A stretch of DNA of 64,000 bases, taken from Amoebophrya sp. A120. Lineage: Eukaryota > Protista > Dinoflagellata. Below the pieces are notes generated by a model. That model was not told where the DNA came from and made no database searches. It saw only the letters and a program-made list of their open reading frames with translations. The DNA lies in assembly GCA_905178155.1 (NCBI GenBank), contig CAJINV010000002.1, forward strand, positions 9,554,650 to 9,618,649. The letters are read 5' to 3'. Shown in pieces: positions 1,041-44,101 of the stretch. Position 1 is the stretch's first letter. Each line of letters opens with the position of its first letter. A program made the translations under genes and the position numbers.

Positions 1041-1041
1041 G

Positions 1042-2984: not shown

Positions 2985-5807
2985 CAACCCCCCCTCCAAA
3001 AAAAGAGGTCTTGACATCAGTGTTGAAAAACGCGAGTTTTGAAATCCGATAAGAGAAGGTAGAAGAACTAAGCCAGGAGGAGGGAAGACCTTCGATAGCC
3101 ACTAGAAACCTCTATCGCCACAAGAGAAAAACCAGATGTAATTCAAAAAAGGAGAACGCGAAATCATACACGGAATTCTGAAACTGAAACTGCGAAAACA
3201 CGATAGGCATGAAGAACCGGGAAAGAAATATACTTTTAAGTTGTGGATGAACAGATTAATTTTGTACAAAACGACCAGAAGTGTAGAAACAGCATGACAA
3301 ACTAAGTCTGGCACTCTTATGCAGAACGCCGTTTAGCATTACAAATTGCCGCACTTGGTTTGTTGTGCACAGATCTCGAAAATAAATTTTGTTGAACTTC
3401 CGCGGAGACTCAACAGCGAAACGGAAATAAATGTAGTCGCGAAACCGAAAAAGAGCATCATCTTACAGTAGTGCGAATTCTTGAAAATTTTACACGAAGG
3501 TTCATTTTTTTTTGTTTGTAGCGAAACGACAGATAGGAAACAAAAGAAGAAGGACATCAAGAAACGTGGTTTGTAATGCTGAGAACGCGAGGTTGAAGGT
3601 ATTTTTGCCGAAAATCTTGTGAAACATAGCAAAGCCCACTGAGAAAGGAGCTTTTGCGTGCTAGAGAGAGGAATCAAAAATGTCAAAAATGTATAAGAGC
3701 TTGAGCGAGCGGGGCGAAGGCAACATGTTGCTACAGGATAAGCATGGTTATCAGTTGAGCCCCCGCATGCGAGTTTTAGGTCGTGCAAAAAAGAAGAACT
3801 TGTGCTGCTGTGATAACACGCTCTTGGCATTGTAAGCCTTCCCCCGGTGGGTATCTGGACACGATACCCCGAGAGCTGTAAAGTATGTTTGTTCGCAGTA
3901 GTATCCTGGTAGCTGTTTAAAAGTTAGAATCACGCTGGGAGAGAAGAAAAACAAAACCGGAACGAAGACCCCCGGCGGCGGTCAGGGTTACGAATTCACT
4001 TCACTCCAGCATTCCCAGCACCTCCGGGGGAAGCTGAAAGTCGGCGTCGTTATGTTGCAGGAAGCGGCGAACCATTTCGAGATCGCATTTCGCGATCTCT
4101 TTGGTCAAAATGTCGCTCGGGTTCGCCGCGCCTTTGATGTGAAAAATACAAAGGTCGCCGTCCTGCACCAGCCGCGAAATGAAGAAATAATCCGCCCGCA
4201 GGTTGCGTTCCGTTGGCGCCCGTATTAGCGTGTTGGTGCTGCTCCGGACCACGTTGTTGGAGTCGGTGCAGATCACCAGCGGTTGCACTGCCGTAGCCAA
4301 GCCGGCGGAAACACAAATTCCGCGAAAGTACAGCAACTCGCTGATGATCAACCGGATTGCCAGCAATTCCGCGCTTGTGCTACTGCTGAAAACCCGGGAA
4401 GGCTTGGCGCTGTAGTGCGTGACCAGGTTGTAGACCAAATCTTTTTCGTTTTCCCCCGCTTGTGCAGCCTCTTTTCGCTTGTTGAGGAGGCAAACCATTG
4501 CCCCCAGGCGTGGCACCAAACTCGCATCGACCAGGCCCAGAACAACGTCGGGGGAGCTGCTGGTGGGCAAAATTTTGATCGTGTCCTGCGCGTTTTCCTT
4601 TACCAGCGCGATCAGCTCGTTGACTTCGCTCACCAATAGCTCGTAGTCTTCCTCCGTTGCCTCGTCGTCCACCCGCCCTGCCAGGATGCAGATGCTGGCC
4701 ACAAAACTCACCTGGCACTTGGTAACCCACATAAGCTCCCCAATCGCCCGGCGCAGGGGCGATTTTCGTTTTCTGTTTTGAAAAAAGTTCTGCAACTCCG
4801 CGTCGGAAATCATCTTCATCCCCTGGATGAACGACTGCTGACCCACTTCGAAGCCGATGTAGGTGGAGGAGGATGAAGCCGCGAAAATTTTTCCTCCTTC
4901 TGCCTTGCTGAACGTGTCGTCGTCCTTGTCACTTGGGGCCAATTCCCCGTGTCCCGTGCAGGTTATAGTCCGGCCGCAAAAATTGTCGAAGTCCCCAGGC
5001 TGCAAGCAGGTACGGCTTCCCGGCGGGAACTCCTCGAAGACCTTCTCCAAACTTTCATGCGCCGCCCGGCTGCCACCGTACAAGGTGTCGTCGACGTGAA
5101 CACCCAAAATCCCCTCGATTTGAGCTTCCTGCAGCAAGGGGTCGTCGATGCTGCTGCTCATCAGTGGGTTTTGGTTTCTCCTTTCCTCATCGCTGCTCGC
5201 AACGAGGTTGCTCTCCGTTTCTGCTGCTGGTGGGGCTTCGGCCCCGTTTGCTGGTTTCTGTTCTTGGGCGGGTTTCTGCTTGGGGAAGTACCACAGGCAT
5301 GGGTCCTGGTTGTCCTGCCGCCAACCCGCTACCCGCAAGCTCTTGAAGAGGGACTTTTGCCACTGCAGTGGAGCGTCGGCCAGGCCGTAGATGCAGCGCC
5401 GCAGTTTTATGAACTTGCTGTCGAACCCCATGCCCTGAATCGCCTCCGGTATCTGCAGCCAAACTGGGTCGGTTAACAGCTCGCCGCGGAGGAAAGCCTG
5501 ACTAATGTCGGCAATGTTCGCGAGCTTGTTATTCTTGGCGAGCCAGTGGAGGATGATGAGGAGGGAGCTGTCGCAAAGGGTGTGGCAGCGCTTTTCAAGT
5601 CCCCCCTCCAACCTGGAGTCCATGTAGCCCTTCGCGCACCACCTCATCTTCGCCTTCACAAATTTCCCGTTGCAGAACTTCAAAGCGAAGACGATCCGGG
5701 ACGCCACCACCGAAGCGTCGGGGGGGGGCGGTTTCCTTGTGGTGTCAGGGACCGTACGAGGGGGAGTGCGCGCCCCACCGTACGGCTTTCTGGCGCCACA
5801 ATTGTTA
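2579..5807 (-). mobile_element. Internally deleted Ty1/copia LTR retrotransposon (copy A): full 3' LTR, RT-RNase H, ~70-bp remnant of the 5' LTR
   Basis: 5-bp TSD CGTCC at 2574-2578 and 5808-5812; ends TGTTAA...ATTGTTA as in copy B; PPT at 2987-2997; RT/RH homologous to copy B. Confidence 0.92.
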
Positions 5808-5818
5808 CGTCCTTGCAT
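4001..5818 (-). CDS. Copia reverse transcriptase-RNase H only ORF (605 aa from the ATG at 5818)
   Basis: ADISQAFL, IYGLADAP, GVHVDDT (RT); LVDAS, SSTSAELLA, CTDSNN, NPSDILTK (RNase H); no stops. Confidence 0.85.
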   Translation of the reverse strand: MQGRNNCGARKPYGGARTPPRTVPDTTRKPPPPDASVVASRIVFALKFCNGKFVKAKMRWCAKGYMDSRLEGGLEKRCHTLCDSSLLIILHWLAKNNKLANIADISQAFLRGELLTDPVWLQIPEAIQGMGFDSKFIKLRRCIYGLADAPLQWQKSLFKSLRVAGWRQDNQDPCLWYFPKQKPAQEQKPANGAEAPPAAETESNLVASSDEERRNQNPLMSSSIDDPLLQEAQIEGILGVHVDDTLYGGSRAAHESLEKVFEEFPPGSRTCLQPGDFDNFCGRTITCTGHGELAPSDKDDDTFSKAEGGKIFAASSSSTYIGFEVGQQSFIQGMKMISDAELQNFFQNRKRKSPLRRAIGELMWVTKCQVSFVASICILAGRVDDEATEEDYELLVSEVNELIALVKENAQDTIKILPTSSSPDVVLGLVDASLVPRLGAMVCLLNKRKEAAQAGENEKDLVYNLVTHYSAKPSRVFSSSTSAELLAIRLIISELLYFRGICVSAGLATAVQPLVICTDSNNVVRSSTNTLIRAPTERNLRADYFFISRLVQDGDLCIFHIKGAANPSDILTKEIAKCDLEMVRRFLQHNDADFQLPPEVLGMLE

Positions 5819-5938
5819 CACTATATTTACAGAATTTGTTACTTTTTCATTTTTTTCAAAATTTTATTTTTATGGTAGATTCCAATTAATGTGGTTAATC
5901 TAATCAGAAATATGAAAAGTATACAAGGAAACGCCAAT

Positions 5939-6304
5939 TGTTAAATAGCATCGAACTATCTTAGCAACGCACTAGGAACACGCTTCCCAGATGCGGCAGA
6001 ACCACCAGACGACCTTCGTCCGGAACTCGAGATAGTAGAACCAACCTAAAACAGCAAAGGAAGATGCGCATTGTCAGTCCACGTCCGCCATAGCATGCGG
6101 ATATCCTCGAAACACGAGCAGAGTACACGAATCCCTCTCGATTCTCTCCCCCCACTCCTGGCCCACGACTCTAGCGATATTCACGACCTTAACCAGCTAA
6201 GTACGACCCTGAAGCGCTAAGGCTGTAAAATCTACGATATACAGGCGCAGGCGTGCCAATTTGTGGCGCTGGTGGTGTGCACCCCACCAACACCACAATT
6301 GTTA
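5939..6304 (-). repeat. 3' LTR of copia copy B (366 bp)
   Basis: Direct repeat of 14194-14557. Confidence 0.95.
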
Positions 6305-6317
6305 CACCCCCCTTCCC
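6305..6317 (-). promoter_or_regulatory. Polypurine tract (GGGAAGGGGGG-TG) for plus-strand priming
   Basis: Purine run on the minus strand immediately 5' of the 3' LTR. Confidence 0.85.
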
Positions 6318-7455
6318 AAAAATAGGCTTGAGCATGGTAGCGAAAAGGTAAAAGAAGTACAAAACCTATGGTCGTCCTGGCCAGGAGGGGAAGAGCTGTT
6401 TTGTGTCCTCGAACTTCATTTCGGTGCCCTTGCACCTTCTGTTGTCCTCGTTCGGAGTGCCCTTGCACTCTGTGTCCTCGATACTAGTACACCCTGCGTC
6501 CCCGAACTGAATACGTTAAAAGCGTTTGTCCTCGAAACTAGTAGCTGACCACGAAATAAAGAAATTGTCCACGAGATGGTGAAAACCACGAGAATATGTT
6601 ATAACTTTTGACCGCGATAGGTGACCACGAAACTAGCATGCATTGCGGGAAGAGATGCTCACGCGCATAGGATGCAAATTGTACACGAAGCTATCTTTTG
6701 AAACCGTAAACGAAGATATTTTTTTTTGAAATTTTACACGAAGATATTTTCTTTGCTAGAAGACGCCGAACCTAGAGAGTTTTGTACAAAAGAGCATGAC
6801 AAATTGGAGAATGTATTTGAGTGCGAATTCATATAGAATACCGAGAACCTTATGTGAAGCTTGCAACGTGGTTAGTACAGCCAAACGATAACAAAGTGCG
6901 AAACAGCATGAGAAACTTCATTTTTCTGGTTCAGTTCTTAAAGGTGGAAAACTCCTGCTTCCGCCGTGTTTGGAGGAGAACAAGATGGAGAAACATATCA
7001 GAAGTAGGTCATTTTTCTGGAACTTTTTCCACGAAAAGCACAAGGTCTTGCGGGGGTAGAAACGAAATCGAAATCCTACATGAAGCGACGAAACGAAAGA
7101 GAAGGCATCTATAGTGGTCTAGGACCTGGCTGGAAGGTGCTCTGTAAGCCTGAGAACGCGAATTTTGCAACATGTCTGGTAGATATCTTACAAAAATAAG
7201 AAAATCCCCCTTAGAAACCGAAGTTGGAAGTTGAAAAATGCAACGTGATTAGATTTGAAAACCGATAGAGCTACAAGATGCCGCGGGTTAAGCTGTCAGC
7301 TGCTTTTCGCGCGATTCAGGTCGCGCGAAGGGTTTTTTTTACTAAAGATCTTAATTGAAGTTGAGCTCATTCTTGTTGAGCTTCCGCGGACACTCAACAG
7401 CCAAAACAAACAAAACCGCGACGCCCTCCCCGCTCGGGGGTGCGGGTTATAAAAA

Positions 7456-10400
7456 TCAACCGTCCCCCAGCATACACAGCACCTCCGGCGGAAGCGCAAA
7501 CTGCGCTTTGTGGTGCTGGAGAAAATCCCGGACCATTTCCAAGTTGCATTTTTCCACCTGCTTCGTCAAAATGTCGCTCGGGTTTGCCGCGCCCTTGATG
7601 TGCCACAAAAGCAAGTCGCCGTCCTGAATCAGCCGCGAGATGAAGTTGTAGTCCGCCCGTAAATTACGCTCACTAGGCGTCCGGATCATAGTGCTGCTGC
7701 TGCTGCGGACGATGTTGTTGGAGTCGGTGCAGATCACCAGCGGCTGCACCGACAGGGTGAGGCCAGCGGAAACACAAATTCCGCGAAAGTATAACAGCTC
7801 GCTGATGATCAGGCGGATGGCAAGCAGTTCCGCGCTTGTGGAACTGCTAAAAACTCGGGAAGGTTTGGAGCTGTAGTGCGTGATCATGTTGTAGACTAGT
7901 TTTTCTGTCCCTTCGTCGCCCTGTCCCGAAGCAGCCTTCTCTTTGTTCAGCAAGCACACCAGCGCGCCGAGCCGCGGCACCAGCGAAGCGTCTACCAGGC
8001 CCAGAATTACATCTGGGGCTTGGGAGGTGGGTCGGATATGTATGGCGTCGCCCGCGTGCTCCTTGACTTGCCCGATCAAGTCATTAACCTCCGCCACTAG
8101 CGCGCTGTACTCCTCTTCCTCGGCTTCATCGTTCACCATGCCGGCGAGGATGCAGATGTTGGCCACAAAACTCACCTGGCATTTTGTGACCCACATCAAC
8201 TCCCCGATCGCCCGCCTCAGTGGCGACTTTCTTCTTCTGTTCGCGAAAAATTTCTGCACTTCCTCTTCGGTGATCGGGGACATGGTTTTGATGAAGGATT
8301 GCTGCCCAACTTCGAACGCCAAAGCGCAGTCCGAATCCGCGCCCGCGACGATCTTTTCCCCCTCTTTCAGCTCGAAACCGTTTTCCTGTTTCTCCTCGGG
8401 GAGCAACTCGCCGTGCTTGGTGCATTTAATGGAGCGGCCGCAGAAATTGTCGCTGTCCCCCGGCTGCAGGCAGGTCCGGCTTCCTGGCGGGAACTGCTCG
8501 AAGACCTTCTCCAAACTTTCGTGTGCGCGCTGCGACCCGCCGTAGATGGTGTCATCCACGTGAACACCCAAAATCCCCTCTATTTCTTGCTCCTTGAGCA
8601 AGGGGTCGTCGATGCTGCTGCGCAGCAGCGGGTTTGCGTTTCTCCTCTCCTCGTCGCCGCTTGGCTCCGCGGGCGTCTCCTCTGGCTCGGCTTCGGTTCC
8701 GGTGGTTCGTTTCTCGTCTGCCGCTGCTGGTTCTGCTTTCTCCTTGGGGAAGTACCACAAGCACGGGTCTTGCAGGTCCTGCCGCCACCCGGCTTCCTTC
8801 AAGCTCCGGAACAAAACTTTTTGCCACGCCAAAGGAGCATCCGCAAGCCCGTACAAGCAGCGGCGAAGCTTTATGTACTTCGCCTGGAAGCCGAAAGCCG
8901 TGTTGCCTTGGATCGCGGTGGGGATCTCCAGCCAGACGGGGTCAAGCAACAGGTCCCCGCGCAAAAACGCCTGGCTGATGTCCGCGATGTTCGCCAACTT
9001 GTTGTGCTTGCTCAGCCAGTGCAAAATTACCAGCAGGGAACTGTCGCAAAGGGTGTGGCAACGCTTCTCCAACTTCCCGCCCTCCAAGCGGGAATCCATG
9101 AAGCCCTTCGCGCGCCACCGCATCTTGGCCTTGACAAATTTCCCGGAATTGAACTTCAAAGTGAAGACGATCCGGCTTGCCACCACCGAGGCCCCGGCCG
9201 GCCTGTCGTCTTGCTGGCTGCCCATGTCGAAAACCCCAAGGGCCTGGATTCCCTTGACCTCCGCCGCCCTTGCTTCGTCCACCAGGTGCCACAGGCCGTA
9301 TTTGTCTATCTGCGCCATCGTGAGCTCGACGCTGCACCCGTTTGGCGTCACTGCTTCCCAGTTCACTTCCCGCGGCTGCTCGATTTTCAAAAACAAGTGA
9401 AGGTCTTCCCGCTGCGGTCTGTCCTGGCCCGGTTCGAAAACTTGGAAGGGAGTTTGGTGCCCGAAGCGGAAGGCCTGGTCGTACCCGCGAAGAGTTGGTG
9501 GAACTTGGCAGCCCCTGCGGAACACCTTCGCTTCAACCACGTAAACATCACCCCCAAAGCCCGCCGCCGTCCCCGAAACCGGTCGCCCGTTCAGGAGTTT
9601 GTTTATTTCTGTTACTACCGGATCGCGGAAGGAGGATTTGAAGACCGTTTGGCGGCCGCGCTGGGTGATCAAGTCCTGCAGGAAGTTTGTGTTGCTCTCG
9701 ATGGCCCTCAGCTGGTTCTTCCAGTCCCCCGCCGTCCGTAACACTGGATCGCGCTCCACCGGGTCCGCTTCGACCAAAAACAACTTGTCATCTTCCTCCT
9801 CCACCCGAGCTCGTCCTGTGCTGGTTTGTGCAACAAACGCTTGCGCCGCCTCGGTTAGTTCGCAGTTGTAAACTGGGCCGGTGGAGATGTTGAAGGTGGA
9901 AAAGGCCGCGCCGCGGTCGTCTATTTTTGTTGCCGGTGTGGATTTGTCGCGCGTGAAGAGCGCGTCGCAACTCGTCATCAGCAGTCTTCTGGTTTTGCTA
10001 GCTGGCTCTTCGGGAATGGGCGATCCAAAAATTTCCTCCTCGAGGATGTCCTGCGCGCTTCTCTTCTGGCCGGCCGCCCCAGCTTGCTGCGGAACTGCTT
10101 CTGGTGGTGGTCGCGGAGGTTCGAGTGGTTGTACGGTAGAAGCTGGCTTTTGCTTTGGCGGGCGGCCCCGCTTTCGTTCCTCCTTTATGATTTTGCGCGG
10201 CGGCTGGAACGTCGGTTCTGCCGCTGCTGCGACTGGTAGCTTGCTGTTGTTCCCGGAAGTTGTGGTCTTCTTTTCTTCGCCTGTCCCGACCGCCCCCGGT
10301 GCGGAAACTTGTTGCTTGCGGTCTTCAGGCGCTGTAATTCCTGGAAGCGGGTGGAAGTCGATGGGGGCGGTCATGTAGTCGCCCAAGGGTCTCCCGTGCT

Positions 10401-12591
10401 GAATCTCTTCTGCGCTCATCACGAACTTCTTTACCTGGGCGGCCCGGTAGGGAAGAATTTTGTTGCTGCCAGAAGGCCTCACCAAAGCCTCGCCCTTGAG
10501 GGGATCGACCCCAACGCACGTCCCGGTCTGCCTCCAGTGCGCTTTTCCCCCGTGCCAGTTCTCCGACTGCTTGCCATGGGCCCGCAAAATGCGAACCGTG
10601 TCTCCCGGGCTTAGTTCGGAAATGTTCGTGATGGACCGGCTCAGCTTGTATCCGCGGTTGAAACGGCGAACCCGACTCAGCATCTCTTTCCACTGCACCT
10701 CGATCATCGCCTTTTTCTGCTCCTGCAAAGCCGACCCGAACTGTTGCAGGATGTAACGCGACCCCCGGTCGTCGTTGCCCTCGCAGTGGCCGTGGGCGAG
10801 GTTGTTGGGGCTGTAGCAGGTACCATGCGCCCCCGGGCAGGAATTCAACAACTCCTCGCAGTAGTCCAAAAGCTTTTCCTTCAACTCGAACTGGTCCGCG
10901 TCGACCTTTTTCGAGTTGTAGACCGTGTCCGCGAAATCCGCAATAGCCTTGGAAACACCCCGCAGGCCGACGATCTGTTCTAGCAGCGCGATCTTGGTCC
11001 CCCCGGTTAGCAGCAAAATTTTGTTCAAACTTTTATTGAACTTTGCGTGCGCCCGCTCCTCCTTCCCGATCATGTGCGGCGACTTGAACGGGATGGGCAG
11101 CCCAATTATGTCGTTCTCCACCAAGAACCCCTCTACTTCTGCGTTGATCTGGTCCGTTTTCTCGTCGTAAATGAAGCAGGTCGGGAACCCCCCGGCGCGG
11201 CTCTTGAAGCGATGCAGAGCGGCCGGAACTTGCGCCGGTGGCTTTTCGGAATTCGCGCCCGTTTTCTCCGGCAAGTGGTGGTCGATAAGGTGCAGGATCC
11301 GCTTCTGTGCACCGAAATCGAACATGTGGTAGACCATCCCAAGGGCGGTGCTAACTGCGTCGCCCCCGACCAGGAGGCGGGGCCGTGCTGCGAACTGGCT
11401 AAAGCCCACCGGGTGGAGGATGTCCCGCGTTTTGTCAAAGGTGGCGCACTCCTCGCACAGGTCGTATTTTCGGATCCCTTCGAAAAACTCCCTTTCCTTC
11501 GCGTCCTTGATCTTTTCCCCCAGGGTTGCAAAGTGGCCGCCGTTGTAGTGCAACCGCACTAGCCACTCTTTGCGCTCCCTCGTGATTCGCGGAAAACGTT
11601 CAAAAAGCTCCGCGATCGACGTCGGCTTGGGGCCGGCTAGGAACCCGCTAAGAAAGATCGAGAAAACCTGTTCCCGCGGACTTGCGGCCCTGAACTCCGT
11701 CTCCACCAAAAGAATGTCGTCCGCACTGTTCACCCGAAGGTCATCGCCCGCCAGTACTAGCATCTCTCCGCTGGTGCTAGTTTCGTTCCGGAACCCAAGC
11801 TGCCGCTGGAAGCTTCTTCCCACCAAAGGGTGGAACCGCCCTGGGAGCACCCGCCAGCACCCAGGTCGCCACGCGGTCCACCGTCCGTCTGTTTTCCTGT
11901 GTCGCATCGCAATGTTGGAAAACCCCAAGTCTGCTACTGCGCCCTTGGCCGTCTCCCAAGTCTTCTTCGGCCCGGTTTCAACAACTTGTGCTCCGAGTTC
12001 GCGCGCCCCGTCCGCCGGGAACACCAGGGAGCTCGCCCCAGTGTCGAAACAGGCAAAAAGCGTAGCGGTAACCAGATCGGCGCCCCGGCTCAGGTAAACC
12101 AGTCTTAGTCGTTCCACGGCTTCGCTGCCGCCCGCGGTAGTGCTGGTTTGTGCGTTTTGGATATTTACATGAGATTTATTTGCAGTTTTGCATGTGCTTT
12201 TCATCATCAAAGTCGACCCGAAATCGGTTGGCTTCTCCCTCGCTTGCTCGCTACCCGCTGCGGTAGCTGCCTCCGATTCCCGGTCTTCAAGATTGCGCTC
12301 CGGCTGCAAAAGGCTGCCGGGCCGCTTGGTCGAAATCTTCTTCCCGTCCGTCTGCAAAAGGCTTTCGGAGGAGGAAGACGTAGTGGTAGTGCTGGTAGTG
12401 CTTGTTTTTGCTTGCGGCAAAGTGCCGCTCGCTGTAGGTCTGGAAGGTGGAACGAAAATTGTACACGGTGAAGGAACAGGTCGCGCAGAATTCACATCAA
12501 AATCTTTTGCAGCATAGGCCGGAGCCACGTCGCGGCGCGTGGCTGTGCTGTTTTCTTTCCGGCTGCTGCTTTTCGTGTTTCCACTAGATAG
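7456..12591 (-). CDS. pol: Copia Pol (aspartic protease, integrase, RT, RNase H), in frame with gag after a single UGA
   Basis: FDTGAS protease; LHYNGGH..CEEC zinc motif; candidate D,D,E in GDAV / YDEK / KEER; LYGLADAP, HVDDT; RNase H motifs; frame open from 12591. Confidence 0.93.
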   Translation of the reverse strand, partial: LSSGNTKSSSRKENSTATRRDVAPAYAAKDFDVNSARPVPSPCTIFVPPSRPTASGTLPQAKTSTTSTTTTSSSSESLLQTDGKKISTKRPGSLLQPERNLEDRESEAATAAGSEQAREKPTDFGSTLMMKSTCKTANKSHVNIQNAQTSTTAGGSEAVERLRLVYLSRGADLVTATLFACFDTGASSLVFPADGARELGAQVVETGPKKTWETAKGAVADLGFSNIAMRHRKTDGRWTAWRPGCWRVLPGRFHPLVGRSFQRQLGFRNETSTSGEMLVLAGDDLRVNSADDILLVETEFRAASPREQVFSIFLSGFLAGPKPTSIAELFERFPRITRERKEWLVRLHYNGGHFATLGEKIKDAKEREFFEGIRKYDLCEECATFDKTRDILHPVGFSQFAARPRLLVGGDAVSTALGMVYHMFDFGAQKRILHLIDHHLPEKTGANSEKPPAQVPAALHRFKSRAGGFPTCFIYDEKTDQINAEVEGFLVENDIIGLPIPFKSPHMIGKEERAHAKFNKSLNKILLLTGGTKIALLEQIVGLRGVSKAIADFADTVYNSKKVDADQFELKEKLLDYCEELLNSCPGAHGTCYSPNNLAHGHCEGNDDRGSRYILQQFGSALQEQKKAMIEVQWKEMLSRVRRFNRGYKLSRSITNISELSPGDTVRILRAHGKQSENWHGGKAHWRQTGTCVGVDPLKGEALVRPSGSNKILPYRAAQVKKFVMSAEEIQHGRPLGDYMTAPIDFHPLPGITAPEDRKQQVSAPGAVGTGEEKKTTTSGNNSKLPVAAAAEPTFQPPRKIIKEERKRGRPPKQKPASTVQPLEPPRPPPEAVPQQAGAAGQKRSAQDILEEEIFGSPIPEEPASKTRRLLMTSCDALFTRDKSTPATKIDDRGAAFSTFNISTGPVYNCELTEAAQAFVAQTSTGRARVEEEDDKLFLVEADPVERDPVLRTAGDWKNQLRAIESNTNFLQDLITQRGRQTVFKSSFRDPVVTEINKLLNGRPVSGTAAGFGGDVYVVEAKVFRRGCQVPPTLRGYDQAFRFGHQTPFQVFEPGQDRPQREDLHLFLKIEQPREVNWEAVTPNGCSVELTMAQIDKYGLWHLVDEARAAEVKGIQALGVFDMGSQQDDRPAGASVVASRIVFTLKFNSGKFVKAKMRWRAKGFMDSRLEGGKLEKRCHTLCDSSLLVILHWLSKHNKLANIADISQAFLRGDLLLDPVWLEIPTAIQGNTAFGFQAKYIKLRRCLYGLADAPLAWQKVLFRSLKEAGWRQDLQDPCLWYFPKEKAEPAAADEKRTTGTEAEPEETPAEPSGDEERRNANPLLRSSIDDPLLKEQEIEGILGVHVDDTIYGGSQRAHESLEKVFEQFPPGSRTCLQPGDSDNFCGRSIKCTKHGELLPEEKQENGFELKEGEKIVAGADSDCALAFEVGQQSFIKTMSPITEEEVQKFFANRRRKSPLRRAIGELMWVTKCQVSFVANICILAGMVNDEAEEEEYSALVAEVNDLIGQVKEHAGDAIHIRPTSQAPDVILGLVDASLVPRLGALVCLLNKEKAASGQGDEGTEKLVYNMITHYSSKPSRVFSSSTSAELLAIRLIISELLYFRGICVSAGLTLSVQPLVICTDSNNIVRSSSSTMIRTPSERNLRADYNFISRLIQDGDLLLWHIKGAANPSDILTKQVEKCNLEMVRDFLQHHKAQFALPPEVLCMLGDG

Positions 12592-13905
12592 TCACGGGGG
12601 ATTCTTGTTCTCGCCAAATTTGGCGACGTACTCGGCCCGCTTCTTGCGCAAAGTCTCCTTCTCGGCCGCTGTGTGGATCTTCTTGCAGTTTCCGTACTTG
12701 ATGAAGAAGTAGCACCGGTCGCCCAGGCCGCAGTGCGTTCCCCCGCCGGGTCCGCGGTTCCCGTTCCCCGTGCCGGTGTACAAAAGCTGATAACCGTTGT
12801 TGAGGTGGCCGCGAAACCAGTCCGACCACTCTTCCCCCGTGTAGCTCGGTTCGGTATCCACCGGTGGGCAGGTCATCAGATTGGCGTGGTTCACCGGCTG
12901 GTTGTCCCGCGGGTAAATCTCCGTGTCGTTTGCCGCCCCGCTGTGTTTCAAGGTGTAGCACACCTTGGAAACTGTTGTCTGCTCCCCGAACACCAGCCGC
13001 GCCATGCGCTGGGTGGCGCGATCCAGCAGTGCCGTGCGGAGAATCGCATCACCCGCCACCAGGCTGCTGACTCCAGCGGACATTTTCGCCAAGGCGGTGT
13101 ACTCCCGCTCCTTGGCCCGGACGAAGTCCCCGACCTTGGTTCCCCGCGGTCTCAGCGACTGGAGCAGGGCGGTGGTGCGATCGTTTAGCGCCGTGGACGG
13201 CGTCCCGGTGTTGTCCAGCAAAAGCTGTTTCGCCAAGGCGAAAAGCGATTTCCCCGCGATGTTTTCCACCGTCTCCTGCGATTCCGCGTGCACCTTGAAC
13301 GCCCCGACCGCGATAAGGTCGAAGACGCTTTCCTCGTCGAATTCCAGCTTCATCATCATCCGCGCCCATTTCGCAAGCCGCGGTAGGTACTTCGCCATTG
13401 ACTCCTTGTCCGGCTGGAAGTGTGGCATCTGGTCCGAAATCTTGTCCGCCTTGATCGTCTCTTGCGGCGTCAGCGTGCGTCCCAACGGCTGCGGGAAGTC
13501 GAGCCAGTCCGACAGCATCGCCGCAATGGCGGTTCCGGGCTCCGCCTGCTCGGCGGGGGAAGAAGAAGCCAGGTCGGAAAACATTTTTTGCTGAAACGCC
13601 AGTCCGCCGCGGATTTCTGAAGTTCCAGTAGCGCTGCTCGCGCTGCTTGCCGCTGGTTCGGTCGTTCTTTCCGCTGCTAGTCCTGTGCTTGGCTTCTCCG
13701 GCGCCGCTAACTTGCCAAGCACCATGGTCAGCATGTCCGTCTGCCTCGCCATAGCCTCGCCCTGCTTGGCCATGGCGTCCGCAATCGTGCTCATGGACGT
13801 GCTGATCGCGTTCATAGCACCGCTTGAGACCGAAGAACCGCTGTCGAACTCGTCATCTGCGCCCGCCCCGCGGGTTTTACTTCCCTTCCGCTGCTTCTTC
13901 GCCAT
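12592..13905 (-). CDS. gag: Gag (437 aa) with C-terminal C-x5-C-x8-C-x3-H motif
   Basis: First long ORF after the PBS; position relative to pol; CGLGDRCYFFIKYGNCKKIH. Confidence 0.85.
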   Translation of the reverse strand: MAKKQRKGSKTRGAGADDEFDSGSSVSSGAMNAISTSMSTIADAMAKQGEAMARQTDMLTMVLGKLAAPEKPSTGLAAERTTEPAASSASSATGTSEIRGGLAFQQKMFSDLASSSPAEQAEPGTAIAAMLSDWLDFPQPLGRTLTPQETIKADKISDQMPHFQPDKESMAKYLPRLAKWARMMMKLEFDEESVFDLIAVGAFKVHAESQETVENIAGKSLFALAKQLLLDNTGTPSTALNDRTTALLQSLRPRGTKVGDFVRAKEREYTALAKMSAGVSSLVAGDAILRTALLDRATQRMARLVFGEQTTVSKVCYTLKHSGAANDTEIYPRDNQPVNHANLMTCPPVDTEPSYTGEEWSDWFRGHLNNGYQLLYTGTGNGNRGPGGGTHCGLGDRCYFFIKYGNCKKIHTAAEKETLRKKRAEYVAKFGENKNPP

Positions 13906-14179
13906 TTCCGGTCGGAATTAGGTGCGAGGAAAACCTGCCGCCCGGTCGGTATCCGGACAATGCTACCTTACGGCCGCAGAAGACGCTTCGCCGGTTTTCA
14001 AGCGTGTTTAGCGATCCCTCGTGGGTGGCGAAGACGGTATATACAGGGCAAGGCGGTGAAGCTCGTCGTCGTCACGCCGCGAGAGAGAACACCTGGAAAC
14101 GTGCAAAAACAGGTCGCGAACGGGTCCCACCTCGTCGCGCCGTGAGGAAATAGAAGAAGTCACCCCGGCAGCCTCTGCG

Positions 14180-14193
14180 GAGTTACGGCACCA
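14180..14193 (-). promoter_or_regulatory. Primer binding site TGGTGCCGTAACTC, complementary to a tRNA-His-like 3' end
   Basis: Abuts the 5' LTR; + strand GAGTTACGGCACCA resembles the eukaryotic tRNA-His end GAGTCACGGCA-CCA. Confidence 0.8.
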
Positions 14194-14557
14194 TGTTAAA
14201 TAGCATCGAACTATCTTAGCAACGCACTAGGAACACGCTTCCCAGATGCGGCAGAACCACCAGACGACCTTCGTCCGGAACTCGAGATAGTAGAACCAAC
14301 CTAAAACAGCAAAGGAAGATGCGCATTGTCAGTCCACGTCCGCCATAGCATGCGGATATCCTCGAAACACGAGCAGAGTACACGAATCCCTCTCGATTCT
14401 CTCCCCCCACTCCTGGCCCACGACTCTAGCGATATTCACGACCTTAACCAGCTAAGTACGACCCTGAAGCGCTAAGGCTGTAAAATACGATATACAGGCG
14501 CAGGCGTGCCAATTTGTGGCGCTGGTGGTGTGCACCCCACCAACACCACAATTGTTA
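14194..14557 (-). repeat. 5' LTR of copia copy B (364 bp)
   Basis: Direct repeat of 5939-6304. Confidence 0.95.
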
Positions 14558-16622
14558 CCAATACACTTTCCATCGTTTTTTAATTTATTGAGGCAAGCTG
14601 TTTTTTTTTTATTTTCATAAAATTTCTAAATTTTTCAAAAATTTGAAAAAACACAAAAGGTGCATACCACCTTGTAAAAACAATGAAAAAAAAACTATGT
14701 GGTAAGACAGACACGCACACTCTTCATATGTCCACGCACTCAGTGTAAAATACTTTGATAATCTGTATAGTTGCCTACTTTAAAAAAAAACAAGAAGGGC
14801 TGACCGCCAACGCCTCCTCAAGATGTGGTAAAAATGAAAGATCAAAGTAGATCGATTGCCTATGTTGTGTATTATGTTGGGCTGTCTTTATCTATTCACA
14901 TCTAGTTAACCTGATTTGGATAGGTGCGCACATGATTTTTGGAAATTGTGAAGAGAGGAGTCTTCCTCTTCTGGATATCTGGGAGAATACTTTCTCCAGA
15001 TCATCAGAAATCGTCTCTATATGATCCAGCTTTTCAGTATTAAGCTTTCTACAAAGGACGCGGGGCTCGTCAGTCTTGGAACGTCACCCATAGACTGAGT
15101 TTCCGCAAAATCGAGATGAGATGTATGGAGGCTGGCAGGCCAGGTTCTCTCCAACCAGCTTATCTCCAATATGGAGCCACTGGAATCCGGGCAAGAGTAG
15201 GGCTCCGCGGTGATTCAGAGGCGCTTTTGTGCGCTGTTTTTATGTATCGCGCCGGCCCTTTTATGGTGCGTCTTTGTATTCATTCAGCTCCGCCCGTCCC
15301 GCGGTGACGGGCTTCGTGTGTAAAGGATAAACGTACTGTCATATAGGTTTCCGAGGAGCCTGCTTGTCGGCGTCCGTAACCCAACGGAGATGGCGGCAGT
15401 GGCGCGGACCGCTTTGCTCTACGATTTAGCGTTCCTACGTCAGTCAGGTGGAGCCGCCGCGCGCTCCCACAAGTTGCGACGGCCTGGATTTTCAAGGATT
15501 CCGAGAAATCGGCCAGGCGGCGCCGGATGCGCGATGAGCGCGACCGGTTCCGCCGCGTCGTTTGCGTCGGCACAAGCAATTGAGACGCCAAATAATACTG
15601 GGCGGGGACGCAGGTGCGCGGCGACACGAGCCCTTTTCTGTGCGTGCCGCGGCCGCGGAAAAGCCGCGCGCTTTGTTGAGCGCGAGAAGCCCGCGCTCCG
15701 CCCTGGTCGCACTGCTGCTCCCAGTGCGCGGGCGAGGGGGCGCTTCAAGGAAGCGGGGCGCGGCACATATTTTCGTTCGCGTTGCGGGGCGGCCAGTTCT
15801 AGCTTCAGTGCGAATGGTCCCGTGGCGTCTACTTGCCAATCCAGCGTCTGGGGTCGTGGATCGGACAAGCTTTTCATCGCGTGCGCTGTCTGCCCTCGTC
15901 TCTGCATATCATATGGAATCACCGCAGTTGGACGTCCACAACGGAGCGCAGCGGTGACAGTACGCACGACGACCGTCCTCTAGTCAGATGCAAAAAGAGA
16001 GTCGAACGTCGAGGGAATTTCTACGCACAGACATGCCACTAGCGTAGATATTTAACTGCAACCCGCCAAGAACTGAAACTAGACGGACCGTGAGCGTCAT
16101 ACATTGAGAGCAAAGTGTCACTGCCGCAAAGAACTAGGAGCGAAGCGTTCACTTACCGAGTGTGAGGGAAGCAGAGAACTTTACGAATTCTCGGCATGGA
16201 TGCAACAAAAGCATACAACATGCAAAACCACGGACGCACACGCAAGAATATTTATCATGAACTCGACGAAACAGGACTCCGTTTGCTCTTTTTTCCAGTT
16301 TCTCGACCTCCATGCATGCCTGCCCGACGGGCCCTCCTCTATCGCATTCGAAAGGAGAAGTGGCCTTCGTTCGCCCATCTTATTTCACCCTGCATAAAGT
16401 AAGAGCTCACGTGCAAGAAGTTTCCCCTTACGTACAGATAAGTTCGGCAAGGAGATTCGGCTCGAAATTTGTCGATCCCGCAGTCTTTTTCGACCCAACC
16501 CCGATCTACCCAGCTGCCCTCCGATCGCGACCGGCTGCCTAGGCCTGCCTGCCTGAGCTACCATGCGCGGGCCTCTGGCACCGAAGAGGGCCTCGGCCTC
16601 TAAGTCCACGCCTCGCGTCAAG

Positions 16623-24088: not shown

Positions 24089-25580
24089 ATGGCGACGTCC
24101 GTGTACGGAAGTTTTGGGGCGTCAGAGCGTCCCGCAACCGGACCGGGCGTCAAAACCAATACCGGAACGCAGGTGCACACTATGGCACTGGAAAAAGACA
24201 TGGATGTAGCCGATTTGCGTTCGTAGTTGCAAAGGCAGTAATAATTCTACTTCTTTCCATCAAACATCAGACCAGAAATAGTCCGCGTTACGGCGGTTGA
24301 GTATGGCCGTATTCCATTGGTCTCCATTTACATGGTGCTCCAAAAAAAAAGTACTGACTGCTTATGCATGTTCTTACTGCGGCGCTTTAGCACTGAGGAA
24401 GTAAAACAAGCGAATCCAAAAGCTACCGCCAGTTGATGTTTTTTTAGCCTCGATACTGCTTGGAAACCACGTGCATCACAACATATCCACAGTGACAAGA
24501 AAGTGCGCCCAGGAGGTTGATTTTGAAACCATTGTGGCGCTGTCCAAGCAGTTTACCGAGGAGTTGGAGCTGAAACAGGCCGAGAAGCAAGCGCTGACCA
24601 AAATAATATCGGACGCAAAGAAAGCTATCCAAAGGAATCAGGCCGTAATAGTGAAGAAAAAGGCACAACTGGAAAAAAGCGAGACGCAGAAACAGGATTA
24701 CGACAAAAAATTCAAAGAGCTGGAGGCAGGGAATGCGAAGCTAAGGCACGAATTGCAGGGCCTGCTCCGGGAAAACGAAAAGCTAGGTAGACTTTGATAA
24801 AGTATTTGAGAACAACGAAGACGAAGGTGCGCATTATGAAAGAATAGAGGAATTGTTGTCGTGTAATAGTGCACGGCTTGAAATGATCCATATTCTCGCT
24901 AGAGTCGCAAAAATTTGTACCTGCGAAATCGTTGCTGTGCGTTTGACGAGAAAAATGAAACAAATCTATCAGCTGTAGAGGTGGAAACAATGTCAGAGCA
25001 GATGCGGGAACTCTTAGCAGTGTACGGGGAGCACCGGGAATATCCTGTGCAAAAGTATCGCACTCGTAGTAAAAATCGCGTTTATGCATTACAAATCTCT
25101 TTCTCAAGATAAATCAGCATTACCAATTCAATTTGTAATGCTGGGCAATTTGTCATGCAATTTATACTAGTACGATGCTTTTGCATTGCATAGGGAACAA
25201 CTGGAGGCAATACAGAACATGTCCAGCACCTATAGGCGGGAAATTGGAATAGAAAAGAAGCACCGCGATGAGGTAGGGCACTTAGTAGTTTGATGAAAAC
25301 CTGTTCTTGCCGACACGGATTCGTTTGACAATCTTTTTTCTTTACAGAACGGGAACGAAATGTTGCCCTTGCCCCTAAAAGCAAAGCCGCTCCTTGCTTC
25401 CTTTGAACAGGATTGCTGTACCACTCTCATCCATCACAGGTAATGGCGTCCGTGCGGACGCACAAGACCGCGAGAAGCATCATGAACGACCGCGTCGCAG
25501 ACGCCACGCGGAGGCAAAACCTGCTGAAAAGCCACGTTGCAGACATCTTTGTAGCCAGTGTAGTGGCGCCGGGTGGATAG
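24089..25580 (+). CDS. Multi-exon coiled-coil protein of unknown function (exons approx. 24089-24205, 24513-24786, ~24940-25040, ~25420-25580)
   Basis: Heptad E/K/Q/L-rich segment EVDFETIVALSKQFTEELELKQAEKQ..; first intron GT-AG in frame. Confidence 0.55.
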
Positions 25581-36014: not shown

Positions 36015-39000
36015 ATGGAGGCAGATTCGTTGCGCACGGTCCCGCTCTCCCTTGAGTGGCGGAACGTGACGATCCAGGTGGGGGACAAAAAGATTTTGGA
36101 CAACGTTTCGGGCTACGTGCCCGCCGGCGAAACGCTGGCGATCCTGGGGCCCTCAGGTTCCGGGAAAACGACGCTGCTGTCCCTGTTAGCGGGCGTGTTT
36201 CGCTCCAAGGCACAGAAGGACACCTCGATCACGGGGGAGATCATCGTGGGAACCGGTCCGCAGGCGGCCGGCCCCGCGCGGGTGCACGCCTTCAGCCGGC
36301 ACATGGCGTACATGCGGATTGTGGAACAGTACGACACGTTCCTGGGGTCGTCCACGGTGTGGGAGCACCTGCTGCTGAACGCCGCGCTGCGGCTGCCGGA
36401 CAGCACGGCGGAAGAGCAGGAAGAAAAGATCGTGGAGATTCTGGACCGGCTCCGCCTCGCGGGCTACGAGGAGGTGCGGATTCCGTTTCTCTCCGGGGGG
36501 CAGAAAAAACGGCTCTCCGTCGCGGAGGAACTTCTGTCGAATCCGGCAATCCTGTTTCTCGACGAGCCGACGTCCGGGCTGGACTCCACCGTCGCGCGGG
36601 AGGTGGTCGAAATCTTCTACGACGACGAGCGCCGGGAGCAAGTGGCCCGGGAAACGGCGACCAACGTGACGAAGCGAAAAGAATCCGAGCAAGAAGCCGA
36701 CACGGGACCGGACAAATTGTCAAAAGTCGAGCCACCAAGAACTGTTGCATTGAAAATGCACGACGACGAGGCCGCAGACGAGCCGGTATCCCCAAGTGGG
36801 CAGCGAAAGCCGATCGAGAACAAGACACGTAAGAAAGATGCCACGAAACTTCTGCAGCCGTGGGAGCGTGCCAGGGCAAGGCTGGAAGCGAAGCTGAACG
36901 ACTGCTGCAAAGTCGATGGACGAGACAAGGCCAAGGGCCGTGACGATGATCTCGTCCCGAAGCACCAGAAAGAAAAACAGCAAACCACGATTGTGTACAC
37001 CATCCACCAGCCTTCCTCGCTCGTCTGGAGCTGGTTCTCGCACAGCATGTTTCTGGCGCGTGGCAAGTGTCTGTACTTCGGGCCCGCGGACGAAGTCGCC
37101 GACTATCTGGAGGCGAACGTACCGGATTGCCGGTGTCCGAAGGGATTTTCCGCGGCGGAGTTCTGCCTGGACGCGCTGAACGAGGACCACCACGTGTATC
37201 AAAATGAAAAATCCCCCCTCCCCATATCAAAACGGAAAGTTGTGATGCTGATTTGTGGCCACAAATCAGCTTTGTATTGCAGAGAGGCATGGCGGCCAGA
37301 TCCCCAGGCTAGGTAGGGGCGTATGGGTCTAGTTGTTCAGTATGGCAAACGGCTCGCCTTTAGGCCCAACAGCATGACAAATCGCTTCCATAATGGGGCG
37401 GAAGCTTCTGCCCTTGTCTTCTTGCAAGACAGATGTGATTTGTGGCCTCAAATCCGCAGCGCAAATTTTTGGAAACATACCTTTTCAATATGGGGAGGGG
37501 GGATTTATTTTCCTCTCAATAACGTGGAGAGTTTGACGGCGCTCCGCGCAAAAGAAGACCACGCAACGAAGGAGATCGGGAGGGTGAAAAAGAGTCATTT
37601 GCGTTGTACTGCTGGGAACAGCAGAAATCATGATGCTCTTGATCATGATCGCAATGATGAAAACATTAGAATAAACTCGTGGGGGCGAAACACGAAAAAT
37701 GTTGGGCGCGACGAGGAGGAGGCCAACGCCAAAAATGGAGGGGACATTATTGTCAACAAAGGCGACGATTCTGACGGCACCGGTCTGGAGGACGAGGAAC
37801 TAGAGCCCGGGTTTCTTGGCGAGGCGAGGCAGAAGTCCCTGTATGCCCCGTTTTCGGTCCAGTACTCTGTGTTGGTCACCCGGGTGTGGCGCGATCGCGT
37901 CCGGGACCGTAGCAAGACCCTGATGGTGATGGTGGGGAACGCCGCGCTGCTGTTCATCCTGTCCGCCATCTTGTGGCAGCATGGCAAACGCCCCCAGCAG
38001 AACAGCGGCCGGTTTTGCGCCGTTATTCTGGTGACCACCTTTCCCATGATTGGGGACACGATTAACTACCTGATGCAGGTCCTCTTCCTCCAGCCCCAGA
38101 TTCTGCGTGAGTACAACACGAAACGGCTGTACTACCTGTTTCCCTACTGGCTGGCGCAGCGCACCGGCGCGGCGCTGCTCGACTACGCGATGACCTCGGT
38201 TTTCTACGTGACCACCATGTTCTTCACCGTGGGCTTCTTCCCCGACTACCCTTTCTCCCGGTACGTGCGGGTGCTTGCCGCGGTGGCGCTGCTGCAGACG
38301 CTGGGCATGAGTTACGGCATGCTGCTGGGCAACCTGACGGATGATTTCACGCTGCTGCACGCGATTCTGCTGATTTTCTGCATGCCCTTCATGATGGTGA
38401 ACCCGGTTCTGGCGCCGGGGGTCGAGATCCCCCCGTGGCTCCTGTGGTACCAGTACGGCAGTCCCTACTACTGGGGCACCAAACCCCTCATTTGGGTGCT
38501 GTACAAGGACTACTCGATGCAAGACCTGGAGCCGAGCGAAACGGACCTGCGCGTGCGGTTTCCGCACTACTGTGTGTACCGGGATTCCACCGGTCGCAAC
38601 TACAAGTGCAGCGAGCTAGAGGCCGCGGCGCCGGGAGGAGGGCGGATTCCTCGCGCTCCGGGTGGATCTACCGCTACTTTGCAGGTTGTAGCCGGGGAGG
38701 ACCACCAACCCTCTGCGAGCTGGTACAACGAGGGCAAGCCCTTTCTGTTCCTGGACGGCAACGCCTTCCTCAAACAGCAGTTTGATGTGGACCCGGAGCA
38801 GCCGTTCCAGGAGGTGTATTTTCCGCTGCTGATGTGCGCCGTGATGCTGGTGGTGCTGAACGTCTCTGCCTTCGTCATGTTCGCCTTCCGCCACAAGTAC
38901 GCCTGCACCTGCTCCGTAGCATGCTCGAGGCGGCGGTTGTGTGGAGGCGGAAAACCTAGAAGTACGACGCGGGAACAGCACAATGAAGGAGAAAAGAACA

Positions 39001-39146
39001 AACGCAAGCCCGTTCGGGCAAGTAGTGGGCCCGAGCAGAGAGGAAAGGGCAAGAAAGGGCAGCGGAAGAGTACCGGTGCAACGGTAGAACAAGCTGATCA
39101 CGAGAAGCTGGAAGTGACGGAGCCGCTTTTGAACGACAGGGTTTAG
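36015..39146 (+). CDS. ABCG (White-type) half transporter; exons 36015-37196 and 37527-39146
   Basis: Walker A GPSGSGKTT, signature LSGGQKKR, Walker B LFLDEPTSGLD, TIHQP, C-terminal multi-pass TMD. Confidence 0.93.
37197..37526 (+). mobile_element. Introner-type intron, same family as 19726-20050
   Basis: Perfect DR ACGTG; IR CCCCCCTCCCCATAT / ATATGGGGAGGGGGG; yields HHV-ESL. Confidence 0.92.
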
Positions 39147-41482: not shown

Positions 41483-42144
41483 TAGTGCCGTCTCAATACA
41501 CGAATACGAAGCGGCCATGCTGGCACTAGTGCCAGAAGTTCTTGTGGGGCGGTGAAAAACGACTGCTCTGCGCATTTGAGCATCTAAGCATCTTGGAGGA
41601 GGCGGGTTGTCTCAGTAGAACATCCATGGCGACATGTTTCATCGTAGTTGTACAAACTTTTCTACCCACCTTCACCATTAAGCAGGTTCATCTAGTTGAA
41701 TGGCAAGACTACGCAGCAGGCACAACTGCCGTCGCGCAAGGACCCTCTGTTGTTTTATTCCGCAGTGCAGTTCTCGTTTCATGCGCATGTTCATTCGTGA
41801 TCGTGTCTAGTAACGGTCGCAGCAAAGAACACGTGCTTAGAAAATACGGTTGGTCCTCAAGAATGAATGGTGTATCGGACGAGGCAATGCTGTCTTGATG
41901 TTTGCTACGCGGTATCAGAACCCTGTCGTCCCTCATGCAGCAGTACACAGTGCGGAGTTTTTCAGTATAGAAGCATTCGCAGTATCGTAGAAGGAGAGCA
42001 GCAGGTTCTTGTACAAGCCAAATACCGAACTAATACTTTAGCGAGGATAAAAGTGACAGCGTGAACTCGTTTATTTTCTCACACAGAAGATTCATATACA
42101 CATACACTTTTCCATTTTTCTCAAAGTTGAAGTTCGCAAGCCCC

Positions 42145-44101
42145 ATGACGGTCGTCGCAGCGGCTTCGTCCGACGGCGGTGCAGCAAACGGGGCCGCCAG
42201 TGCGTCGTCGAAGTCTGTTCCTCTTCCTGCAAACGTCGCGTCCGACAAAATTACGCACGCCGATGTGCTGCGACTAGTTTCGCTGCTCGAAAAGAAGGAC
42301 TTCGAAACCTGGAAGCAACTGACGGTCGAAAAGCACCTGTCGGACGAGTTCACCAGTCTGTCCGAGCAGCTTGAGCGGCTGGCGAAGCAGATGCTGCCGC
42401 TAAAGCAGCTGTGCGGGGAGCTGCGGACGCAGACGAAGCACGTCAGCGAGCGGACCGAGGTGCTGCGAGCGGAGGAGGTCGCGAAGCGGCGGGACATGGA
42501 GGAATACCTGGAAAAGCACATTGACCCACTGCAGCGGGAGGAGTATCATATTGAAAAGTGCAGCTGCCTCGTCAGATTCGGAAGAAATAATGCGAAGTGC
42601 TTGTATTGGAAAGTTATTTTATCCACATGGACAATGAAAGGACGAGGACTCTTGCTACTTGTTGGAAATTTCAGTGACACACAGCAGTACAAATTGCGTG
42701 ACGAAGCAATACTGTGTACTATGCAAGACGGGAAAAGTAAGTGTAGAAAAAGTTTGCAAGACAATGGCTTGCTCATTCGGAGGTAAGCGCGCTTTTCATT
42801 CTGATAAGTAGAACGAGAAATTCGAAAAGGAGATGCGGGAGTCGGACGAGCTGCAGGCCCGGCTCCGAACCTTTCTGGAAGAGTATGACCACCGCGAGGA
42901 ACTGAAGCGGCAGCAAAACGAGCTGCGGGAAAAGGAATTCGGGAATACGCAGCGGAAACGTGTAGTCATTAGTTCGGGTCGTCGTGCTGTCAGGGCCGAC
43001 AGGCAAAGACTTGACGTGCTGCGTCCGAGGGCTGGAAATGTTCAATTTGCCAGGACGCGCTGATGCCAAGAAGAGCTCAATTTTTTTTTGCCCTGCTGTA
43101 GTGTCATGGGTACAAAAAAGGCCTTCGAAGCCGTTTGGACAATACATTTTTGCCACTCGCGCCGTCAGTGAACATTTTGTGCGCAAGCAAGACGAGATTC
43201 AACATCTAGGCATGTTTTTCCCTGACAGACAGACAGACAGACTCAGGTCTTTTTGAAAATCATAGGCGAGTTGGATGAACAAATTCTGGAGCTGGAGAAG
43301 ACCACAGATCAAGAAGCGGCGGAACTGTGGCAGTGGGAAAAGCTATCGGCGCAAATTGTGTTGTGCACTGACTCGAGATGCAGTTCTTGGTCACATAATG
43401 TGTCTTTTTCCAATGCTTGCAGTGTGGAATCTTGTTGATACGTAAATGTATCGAACATTTACATTGTGTGTGCGATGTTCCTCTTTTTGAAGGTGTATTC
43501 TGTTGCGACGTCCGTTTGTTGATCACAAGCTTTGGCTTGTTGAGTCAAAAGAGCGCAACTTTTGCGTCGATAGGGGCAGAACCTGGTGAAGCAGAAGGAG
43601 AACGACAAGATTCGAGCGTCCATAAACGCACGAGTGGAGCAATTTGAGGAGTGGCAAAAGTCGCTGGAGCAGATGCACAAAGACTTCAATACTACGGGCA
43701 CGGACTTGCAGACACTTCGTATCAAATGTAAAAATGTCTGGGTCTGGAGGAATGCAACTTGTCATGCTAAATCTGCAGCGTGCAAAAATCTGTGTTGCAT
43801 GATTACCAAAAGTCGACCAATTTTGATCAAGTCGGGAGGTAGTTTCTCATGCAGGATAGGCATTAGAAAGGTCTCGCAGAATCTGTCATGCTGGGTCCGG
43901 CATTCCAGACCTCATGGGTCATGGAAAAGCAGCATGACAAATCGCGCATTCATCCAGACCCAGACATTTTTACACTTGATACTTCGGCTGAAGAAGCAAC
44001 TTTTGCTCAAAAAGAAGGACGAGGCGGCCTACCGCCTGAGTCACACCAAGGAACTCCTCAAAAGGAAAAAAGTCATCGAAAAAGAACTTGCGAATGTATG
44101 A
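42145..44101 (+). CDS. Taxilin-like coiled-coil protein, about 5 exons
   Basis: LKQLCGELRTQ..EEVAKRR and LQARLRTFLEEYDHRE resemble taxilin motifs; three junctions restored by the introner rule, one unresolved. Confidence 0.6.
42544..42811 (+). mobile_element. Introner-type intron, ends related to 28270-28567
   Basis: AGGAG|TATCATATTGAAAAGTGC / GCGCTTTTCATTCTGATA AGTAG|. Confidence 0.85.
43344..43577 (+). mobile_element. Introner-type intron
   Basis: TATCGGCGCAAA / TTTGCGTCGATA plus 5 nt; yields EK-QNL. Confidence 0.75.
43720..43986 (+). mobile_element. Introner-type intron (young)
   Basis: Perfect DR CTTCG; 29-bp IR with one mismatch, TATCAAATGTAAAAATGTCTGGGTCTGGA. Confidence 0.93.

Follow-up and report, generated by a model that had tools for sequence, protein, structure and literature searches.

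The genome of Amoebophrya sp. A120 carries introners, short insertions that are removed as introns, and the 64,000-nt stretch analyzed here (contig CAJINV010000002.1, positions 9,554,650 to 9,618,649 of the forward strand, assembly GCA_905178155.1; hereafter the window) holds several of them near two copia long terminal repeat (LTR) retrotransposons. The locus thereby raises the question of which enzyme moves the introners, of which Amoebophrya has tens of thousands. An earlier note on this DNA had likened the introner end TTGATA to the copia end TTGTTA and proposed that a copia integrase tolerant of TA ends, or a Ginger-like derivative, integrates introners, possibly after reverse transcription of the excised hairpin intron. 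Our analysis indicates that the introners, elements with TAT...ATA inverted ends and 5-bp target-site duplications (TSDs), are likely moved as DNA by a dedicated cut-and-paste transposase, and that their likeness to the copia end is probably coincidence or at most reflects distant kinship between enzymes. It thus lowers the standing of the copia integrase, and it does not name the enzyme itself.

Introners Share an Inverted End Signal and a Fixed 5-bp TSD

An unbiased scan of the window, with a terminal inverted repeat (TIR) and an exact 5-bp flanking repeat as its sole requirements, returned 10 matches, 5 of them TAT...ATA, while five shuffles gave 1 to 3 matches each and no TAT...ATA. Looser scans, which required the A run or a profile score, enlarged the window set to 10 introners, listed here without strand:

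43720-43981, introner of 262 bp, TIR of 37 nt (95%), TSD CTTCG; unbiased scan
37197-37521, introner of 325 bp within an ABC-transporter gene, TSD ACGTG; looser scan
28270-28562, older introner of 293 bp, one end mutated, TSD CGGAG/CGTAG (mismatch); looser scan
18244-18508, introner of 265 bp, TSD CTGCG; unbiased scan
19726-20045, introner of 320 bp, TSD CTGCA; unbiased scan
25041-25192, introner of 152 bp, TSD GGGAA; unbiased scan
42544-42806, introner of 263 bp, TSD AGGAG/AGTAG; looser scan
49813-50131, introner of 319 bp, TSD GCTGG; unbiased scan
51997-52321, introner of 325 bp, TSD GCGGT; looser scan
60350-60711, probable introner of 362 bp, degenerate TIR, TSD CGCTC; looser scan

Positions 1 and 3 are T, and positions 11 and 12 are A, in all 20 ends of these elements; AAAA occupies positions 11-14 in 17 of the 20, including 10 of the 10 ends from the unbiased scan. 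The signal common to both ends is TAT-N7-AAAA. By comparison, TATCAA (the complement strand of TTGATA) begins just 4 of the 20 ends, the very four that the earlier note had cited; the opposite ends of the elements at 28270 and 37197 differ. The young introners with 5-bp TSDs that it described do read as cited, at 43720-43981 (CTTCG) and, on the minus strand, at 28270 and 37197, but the TSD at 28270 is mismatched. The observation is thus confirmed, yet selective.

Removal from RNA takes out exactly the element plus one TSD copy. In run X3, a probable RNA run, contig 11 joins 37191 to 37522 and so skips 37192-37521, the 325-bp element plus one TSD, which restores a 948-codon frame (one element). 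Deleting 43720-43981 with one TSD also restores the reading frame, and 33 contigs of run X1 diverge exactly at 43720. Just 19 and 3 reads of the raw RNA runs X9 and X10 matched the introner-bearing region. Contig 14 of run X3 skips a further intron, 45876-46080, which is not TAT...ATA and lacks the TGT[CAG]ATGC motif described below.

A pattern from the 43720 element retrieved 132 loci from one sister assembly, which we regard as a close strain because one locus is 97.5% identical to window positions 52084-56304 over 4.2 kb. With overlaps between the loci removed they amount to about 590 kb, and the queried clan is over-represented in them. The unbiased scan gave 321 matches among them, 259 of which are TAT...ATA; the lone match starting TAA reads as an inner register of an introner TIR. 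When the queried clan was collected irrespective of TSDs, an exact 5-bp repeat flanked 57 of the 69 paired ends; 12 were flanked by no repeat of at least 3 bp and none by a repeat of another length. Target sites are near-random and slightly GC-rich. The sister elements fall into 39 clusters, and in 72 cluster-representative ends the information is concentrated at positions 1-3 and 11-15. Lengths run from 112 to 2940 bp, the longer members having 496, 652, 972 and 2940 bp, and three long TAT...ATA pairs (1031, 1045 and 4208 bp) were left out because each was taken for two elements paired by chance. An alignment of the window with locus L022 revealed no introner presence/absence difference. After removal of the element, a stop-free 300-nt flank is present at 121 of 227 sites, a count that has no control and is not used as evidence. 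Run X1 yielded 9,962 contig pieces on the introner-bearing 14 kb vs 88 on the 13-kb copia region, figures that are not copy numbers but differ widely. With TIRs, a TSD of fixed length, high copy and no coding capacity, the introners have the features of non-autonomous TIR elements resembling miniature inverted-repeat transposable elements.

They are of the same kind as the A120 introners of Farhat et al. 2021 (PMC7789003), which have TAT inverted repeats, seven loose positions and an A run, short direct repeats at exon borders and, as here, no internal transposase. The introner type and a TAT-N7-A consensus are therefore already known for A120. Beyond that account, which names no mover in its treatment of these introners, the elements here have a repeat of constant 5-bp length and a subterminal motif.

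This motif, TGT[CAG]ATGC, is present in 245 of the 252 introners shorter than 400 bp, mostly 31-50 nt from the ends (window examples, 43760-43767 and 43932-43939). Its distances from the ends, 33-34 or 41-45 nt and in some cases near 55 nt, form steps of roughly 10 nt, and the 33-34 or 41-45 placement recurs in several unrelated clusters, with the motif missing in some small ones. The background frequency is 0.12 per kb within long open reading frames (ORFs) vs 0.34 per kb outside them, and the motif is absent from both LTRs and the gag-pol of the copia elements. The motif is a candidate site for a transposase or a splicing factor; our literature search, which covered subscription journals poorly, found no report of it.

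The traces that class II transposases leave are of this type: symmetric TIRs, subterminal motifs in inverted orientation, a TSD of one length and a range of sizes with unrelated interiors. Our model for the introners is that a transposase would bind the A run and the subterminal motif at both ends, excise the element and reinsert it with a 5-bp stagger; the host would then splice out the element plus 5 nt, so that an insertion would be nearly harmless. Three features provide handles on the mover: the fixed 5-bp TSD with TAT-N7-AAAA, the subterminal motif at set distances and the TIR of the 2.9-kb member. The latter, L073:11261-14200, is a 2940-bp TAT...ATA element with a perfect 43-bp TIR and TSD GCCGT that interrupts a 929-codon frame, and it is the best lead to an autonomous parent. 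Its interior carries repeated CCCATCCA words.

The same data bear on an origin that we consider improbable, by a host process with no transposase; the unusual splicing machinery might, for example, reverse-splice the elements, with reverse transcription or repair as the next step. Such a process would agree with the blank transposase searches described below, with the apparent loss of U1 small nuclear RNA reported by Farhat et al. 2021 (PMC7789003) and with the many unrelated families that share end signals only, as these could be splicing signals. However, reverse splicing alone would not be expected to yield a fixed 5-bp duplication (exact in 57 of 69 cases and never of a different length), and the signals at the two ends stand in opposite orientations, which recognition at the DNA level would need.

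The Neighboring Copia Elements Have TA...CA Ends

The copia elements to which the introners had been compared, E1 and E2, are related, adjacent and both on the minus strand:

2579-5807, minus strand, copia element E1, defective, with an RVT_2 match; TSD CGTCC (2574-2578, 5808-5812)
5737-5807, minus strand, E1 5' end: 12 nt of LTR start, then the flipped LTR 5' hairpin, then a jump into the reverse transcriptase (RT) region
5939-14557, minus strand, copia element E2, full length and young; TSD CCAAT (5934-5938, 14558-14562)
12595-13917, minus strand, E2 ORF in the gag position, 441 aa, no Pfam match
7459-12591, minus strand, E2 pol, 1711 aa, with protease-like DTG, integrase, RT and RNase H, the copia order
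10732-11604, minus strand, E2 integrase domain; its HHCC and D-D-E residues do not vary across eight aligned sequences

E2 has what defines a Ty1/copia element: LTRs, a primer-binding site, a polypurine tract, an integrase upstream of an RVT_2-type RT and a 5-bp TSD. Its LTRs (14194-14557 and 5939-6304) show no mismatch over 364 aligned bases and differ by a single 2-nt indel; TGG, resembling a primer-binding site, directly follows the 5' LTR, and a purine tract precedes the 3' LTR. A search of the window for tRNA genes found none. Judged by its catalytic residues, the E2 integrase looks intact. Its named relatives are Amoebophrya sp. A120 proteins with 59-65% identity, and two relatives, P0006 and P0008, match Pfam rve weakly. 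The gag and pol of E2 share one frame and are divided by a lone in-frame TGA (12592-12594, minus strand) followed by CTA. TGA followed by CTA is a leaky stop context, which suggests that pol is made by stop read-through. E1 retains a single full LTR (2579-2984), a 3' non-coding stretch of ~1 kb and the RT/RNase H half of pol, and it has no gag, protease or integrase. The inverted repeat at its 5' end spans 60 nt (98%), and in DNA runs X1 and X2 its interior (2949-5766) is covered by a single contig that is free of differences, in X1 at background depth. A strong hairpin begins both LTRs (-31 and -44 kcal/mol, computed with no shuffle control; 14513-14557 and 2912-2984), and its interior is flipped within the truncated end of E1 (5737-5807). 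On expression the sequencing runs are uninformative for the copia region, with no X3 contig and short X4 patches only.

The right ends of E1 (5799-5807) and E2 (14549-14557) both read CAATTGTTA. The earlier statement that both copia insertions are TA-ended with 5-bp TSDs holds as to the duplications, which are the perfect CGTCC and CCAAT, but for one of the two ends only: the opposite end of each element is canonical, TG on the plus strand and CA on the element strand. E1 and E2 are hence TA...CA elements. Internal LTR copies run on as CAATTGTTA-CA (2976, 6296), which suggests that the LTR start may have shifted by two bases (TG-TAACAA to TAACAA). A TA end with a 5-bp TSD is the more usual reading of the junctions; a TGTTAC end with a 4-bp TSD is formally possible because both copia TSDs start with C. 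Among the contig matches listed there is no further clean LTR-host junction of this family, and so the TA junction rests on two insertions.

The pair is of a kind already known. TACA copia elements occur in plants (PMC9804982, in its description of non-TGCA Copia such as maize Hopscotch and lotus elements), and E1 and E2 resemble them in the TA start and CA end, in LTRs of 364-406 bp and in the integrase placed before RT. In contrast to the plant elements, they have a protist host and a divergent integrase with relatives in Amoebophrya A120, they keep TG just within the 3' LTR boundary, and a hairpin stands at the LTR start. We suggest that TA...CA ends like those of plant TACA copia arose in this copia family through a separate two-base shift of the U3 end.

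Introner Ends Differ from the Copia Ends at Their Common Positions

A profile from the 72 cluster-representative introner ends, scored over positions 3-16, gives positive scores to 20 of 20 window introner ends (+2.4 to +16.9). The copia U3 ends score -12.1 to -17.2, values that 36-60% of TA sites equal or better, and the U5 ends score -5.6, equaled or bettered by 12% of TA sites. At position 3 the copia TA end has A where the introners have T (20 of 20 in the window), and it lacks the A run at positions 11-15. Together with the missing subterminal motif, these differences speak against the copia integrase as the mover of introners.

In the proposal at issue, copia would package and reverse-transcribe the excised hairpin intron, and a TA-tolerant integrase would insert it with a 5-bp TSD. 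We regard this as very unlikely. It draws on a TSD length equal in both element types, on the TA junction at one side of both copia insertions and on the apparently intact integrase; in addition, E1 may be a defective element that was inserted in trans with 12 nt of one LTR. Reverse transcription of the hairpin intron is nevertheless hard to reconcile with the excised RNA, which is 5 nt longer than the element: because one TSD is spliced out along with the element, a DNA copy of the intron would include 5 host bases that are not part of new insertions, and its ends would need site-specific trimming. The route would thus require a primer, a second strand and the trimming of 5 site-variable host bases, none of which is seen. 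The E2 primer site has no 10-mer in common with any of 252 introners, and nucleotide comparison of introners with the copia region gave nothing better than a 22-nt match (E 0.016). [quoted passage not shown] Integrases require free double-stranded DNA with two 3' ends, which a single fold-back strand does not supply, and an LTR integrase is not known to cut an element out of a chromosome. In the sister strain A25, moreover, the inverted repeats start TTA and not TAT, according to the strain comparison in PMC7789003.

A variant in which the TA...CA copia packages introner RNA, its integrase, acting on elements with a 12-nt LTR such as E1, inserts the copies and TGT[CAG]ATGC serves as a packaging or recognition signal would be just as unlikely. 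Our search, poor in subscription literature, found no publication proposing in-trans movement of these introners by the integrase of an LTR element. If true, the copia model would be a new way of making introns, a retrotransposon-driven intron generator; on present evidence it is unlikely.

Evidence Weighing against a Dedicated Transposase

Several results weigh against the dedicated transposase that we favor, and some of them favor copia. Eight of 10 bases agree between the copia U3 end and the abundant TATCAAATGT clan, a level reached by 0.5% of 3,048 other TA sites (P 0.005 when taken alone), and positions 4-9 alone, a range chosen post hoc, place the U3 end in the top 1.7% of TA sites. When the best of 24 consensus ends is allowed for, 7.9% of TA sites do as well (P 0.08), and the remaining clusters match at 2-7 of 10. 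For one clan the likeness of introner and copia ends is real, but it becomes marginal once corrected and breaks down at the positions common to all families, T3 and the A run. The earlier note had itself cautioned that the match of TTGATA with TTGTTA is short and could be coincidence. In addition, TGT[CAG]ATGC occurs four times in the 2.2 kb of copia 3' non-coding DNA (3292, 3336, 3572-3579 and 6794), above the 0.34/kb background; this is a weak hint, as the two copia stretches are akin to each other and clusters of the motif are found in non-coding DNA elsewhere too.

Searches for a transposase also came back blank. No transposase family was found by Pfam among 14 and 90 window ORFs, in line with the earlier statement that none is encoded in the introners or window, but these blanks are weak because Pfam also missed the window's own integrase. 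Nor did one turn up among 116 long ORFs selected from the sister loci on length and composition; 23 ORFs in the 652-, 972- and 2940-bp members match no Pfam family, and an integrase profile matched E2 alone among 13,053 ORFs. Farhat et al. 2021 (PMC7789003), in their treatment of A120, found no transposase and wrote that general transposase-mediated mobilization was ruled out, a result that also sits well with the copia and host-process alternatives. The discovery of an autonomous transposon with the same TIRs had been named as the result that would overturn the copia proposal, and no such partner was found in the 64 kb or in about 590 kb of non-redundant sister DNA.

Word-based searches for a standalone integrase, which would miss a distant Ginger-like enzyme, gave 1, 9, 4 and 1 matches. 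Of the six long matches scanned, four match RVT_2 and two show an RT-like HVDD motif by eye. In P0003 (323 aa), the one short match, 240 residues match and the tail reads by eye as frame-shifted pol; it is taken as a broken copia copy. Viral contigs gave two matches to the introner-end pattern, regarded as chance, within a phage-like ORF with no second TIR, and no relative of the E2 integrase.

Class II enzymes do appear to have left traces in this genome. A 1.65-kb TIR element at 21361-23009 looks Mutator-like by its 72-nt arms (99%), its nested palindromes and a TSD of 8-9 bp; its ORFs have no Pfam match. A Mutator-type family is listed for A120 in the published family lists, and the two together suggest that class II enzymes have acted here.

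Known Transposases That Come Close

For the dedicated transposase, an enzyme of the integrase-like DDE clan (IS3EU/GingerRoot- or Ginger2/Tdd-like) is the most likely class, at about an even chance; another class II type such as hAT5 is a lesser possibility. No described family fits fully, which is a further point on the opposing side: in the family descriptions cited here, IS3EU/GingerRoot have a 6-bp TSD and Ginger ends are TG...CA. Integrase-like DNA transposons with TA...TA ends do exist (PMC10045372 and PMC6839031, in their family descriptions). IS3EU/GingerRoot (PMC10045372, PMC6839031 and PMC12730594, as described there) have TIRs and TA...TA ends (TAYGG in fungal IS3EU), and the introners are likewise TA...TA (259 elements); GC-rich targets with no fixed sequence are common to both. 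These families carry an integrase-related DDE transposase, whereas none is seen in the introners here, and their 6-bp TSD differs from the exactly 5 bp at 57 of 69 introners, none having 6 bp, so that the introners are not assigned to them. Tdd-4/5 of the Ginger2/Tdd group (PMC2836005, in its description of these elements) make 5-bp TSDs, as introners do, but the TGTNR termini of Ginger1 and Ginger2/Tdd differ from TAT, and the introners are not assigned as a member. The hAT5 type, as described in PMC12730594, has a 5-bp TSD and is likened to the introners by TSD length alone and not by its ends.

The closest published case is A120 introner family 38 of Gozashti et al. 2025 (PMC12130899), which in the family description has TIRs, a 5-bp TSD and TA/TA termini and is filed under Ginger. 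The family, about 808 bp long and compared here by description only and not by sequence, shows Copia/Gypsy homology that includes a Copia integrase-like region, and it is called reminiscent of Ginger; the proposal made there is a Ginger-like DNA transposon and not the action of an LTR-element integrase. The Ginger-like derivative in the earlier note is plausible, but such an enzyme for a 5-bp, TA/TA family was already proposed in that 2025 account. Some Copia elements are themselves introners, according to the same account.

Other Features of the Region

Window positions 1-1050 and 1347-2281 hold a GC-rich tandem array with a 23-nt unit, followed by an assembly gap directly before E1. At the sister locus L009:2635-6090, a C5 cytosine methyltransferase gene is split over two adjacent ORFs.

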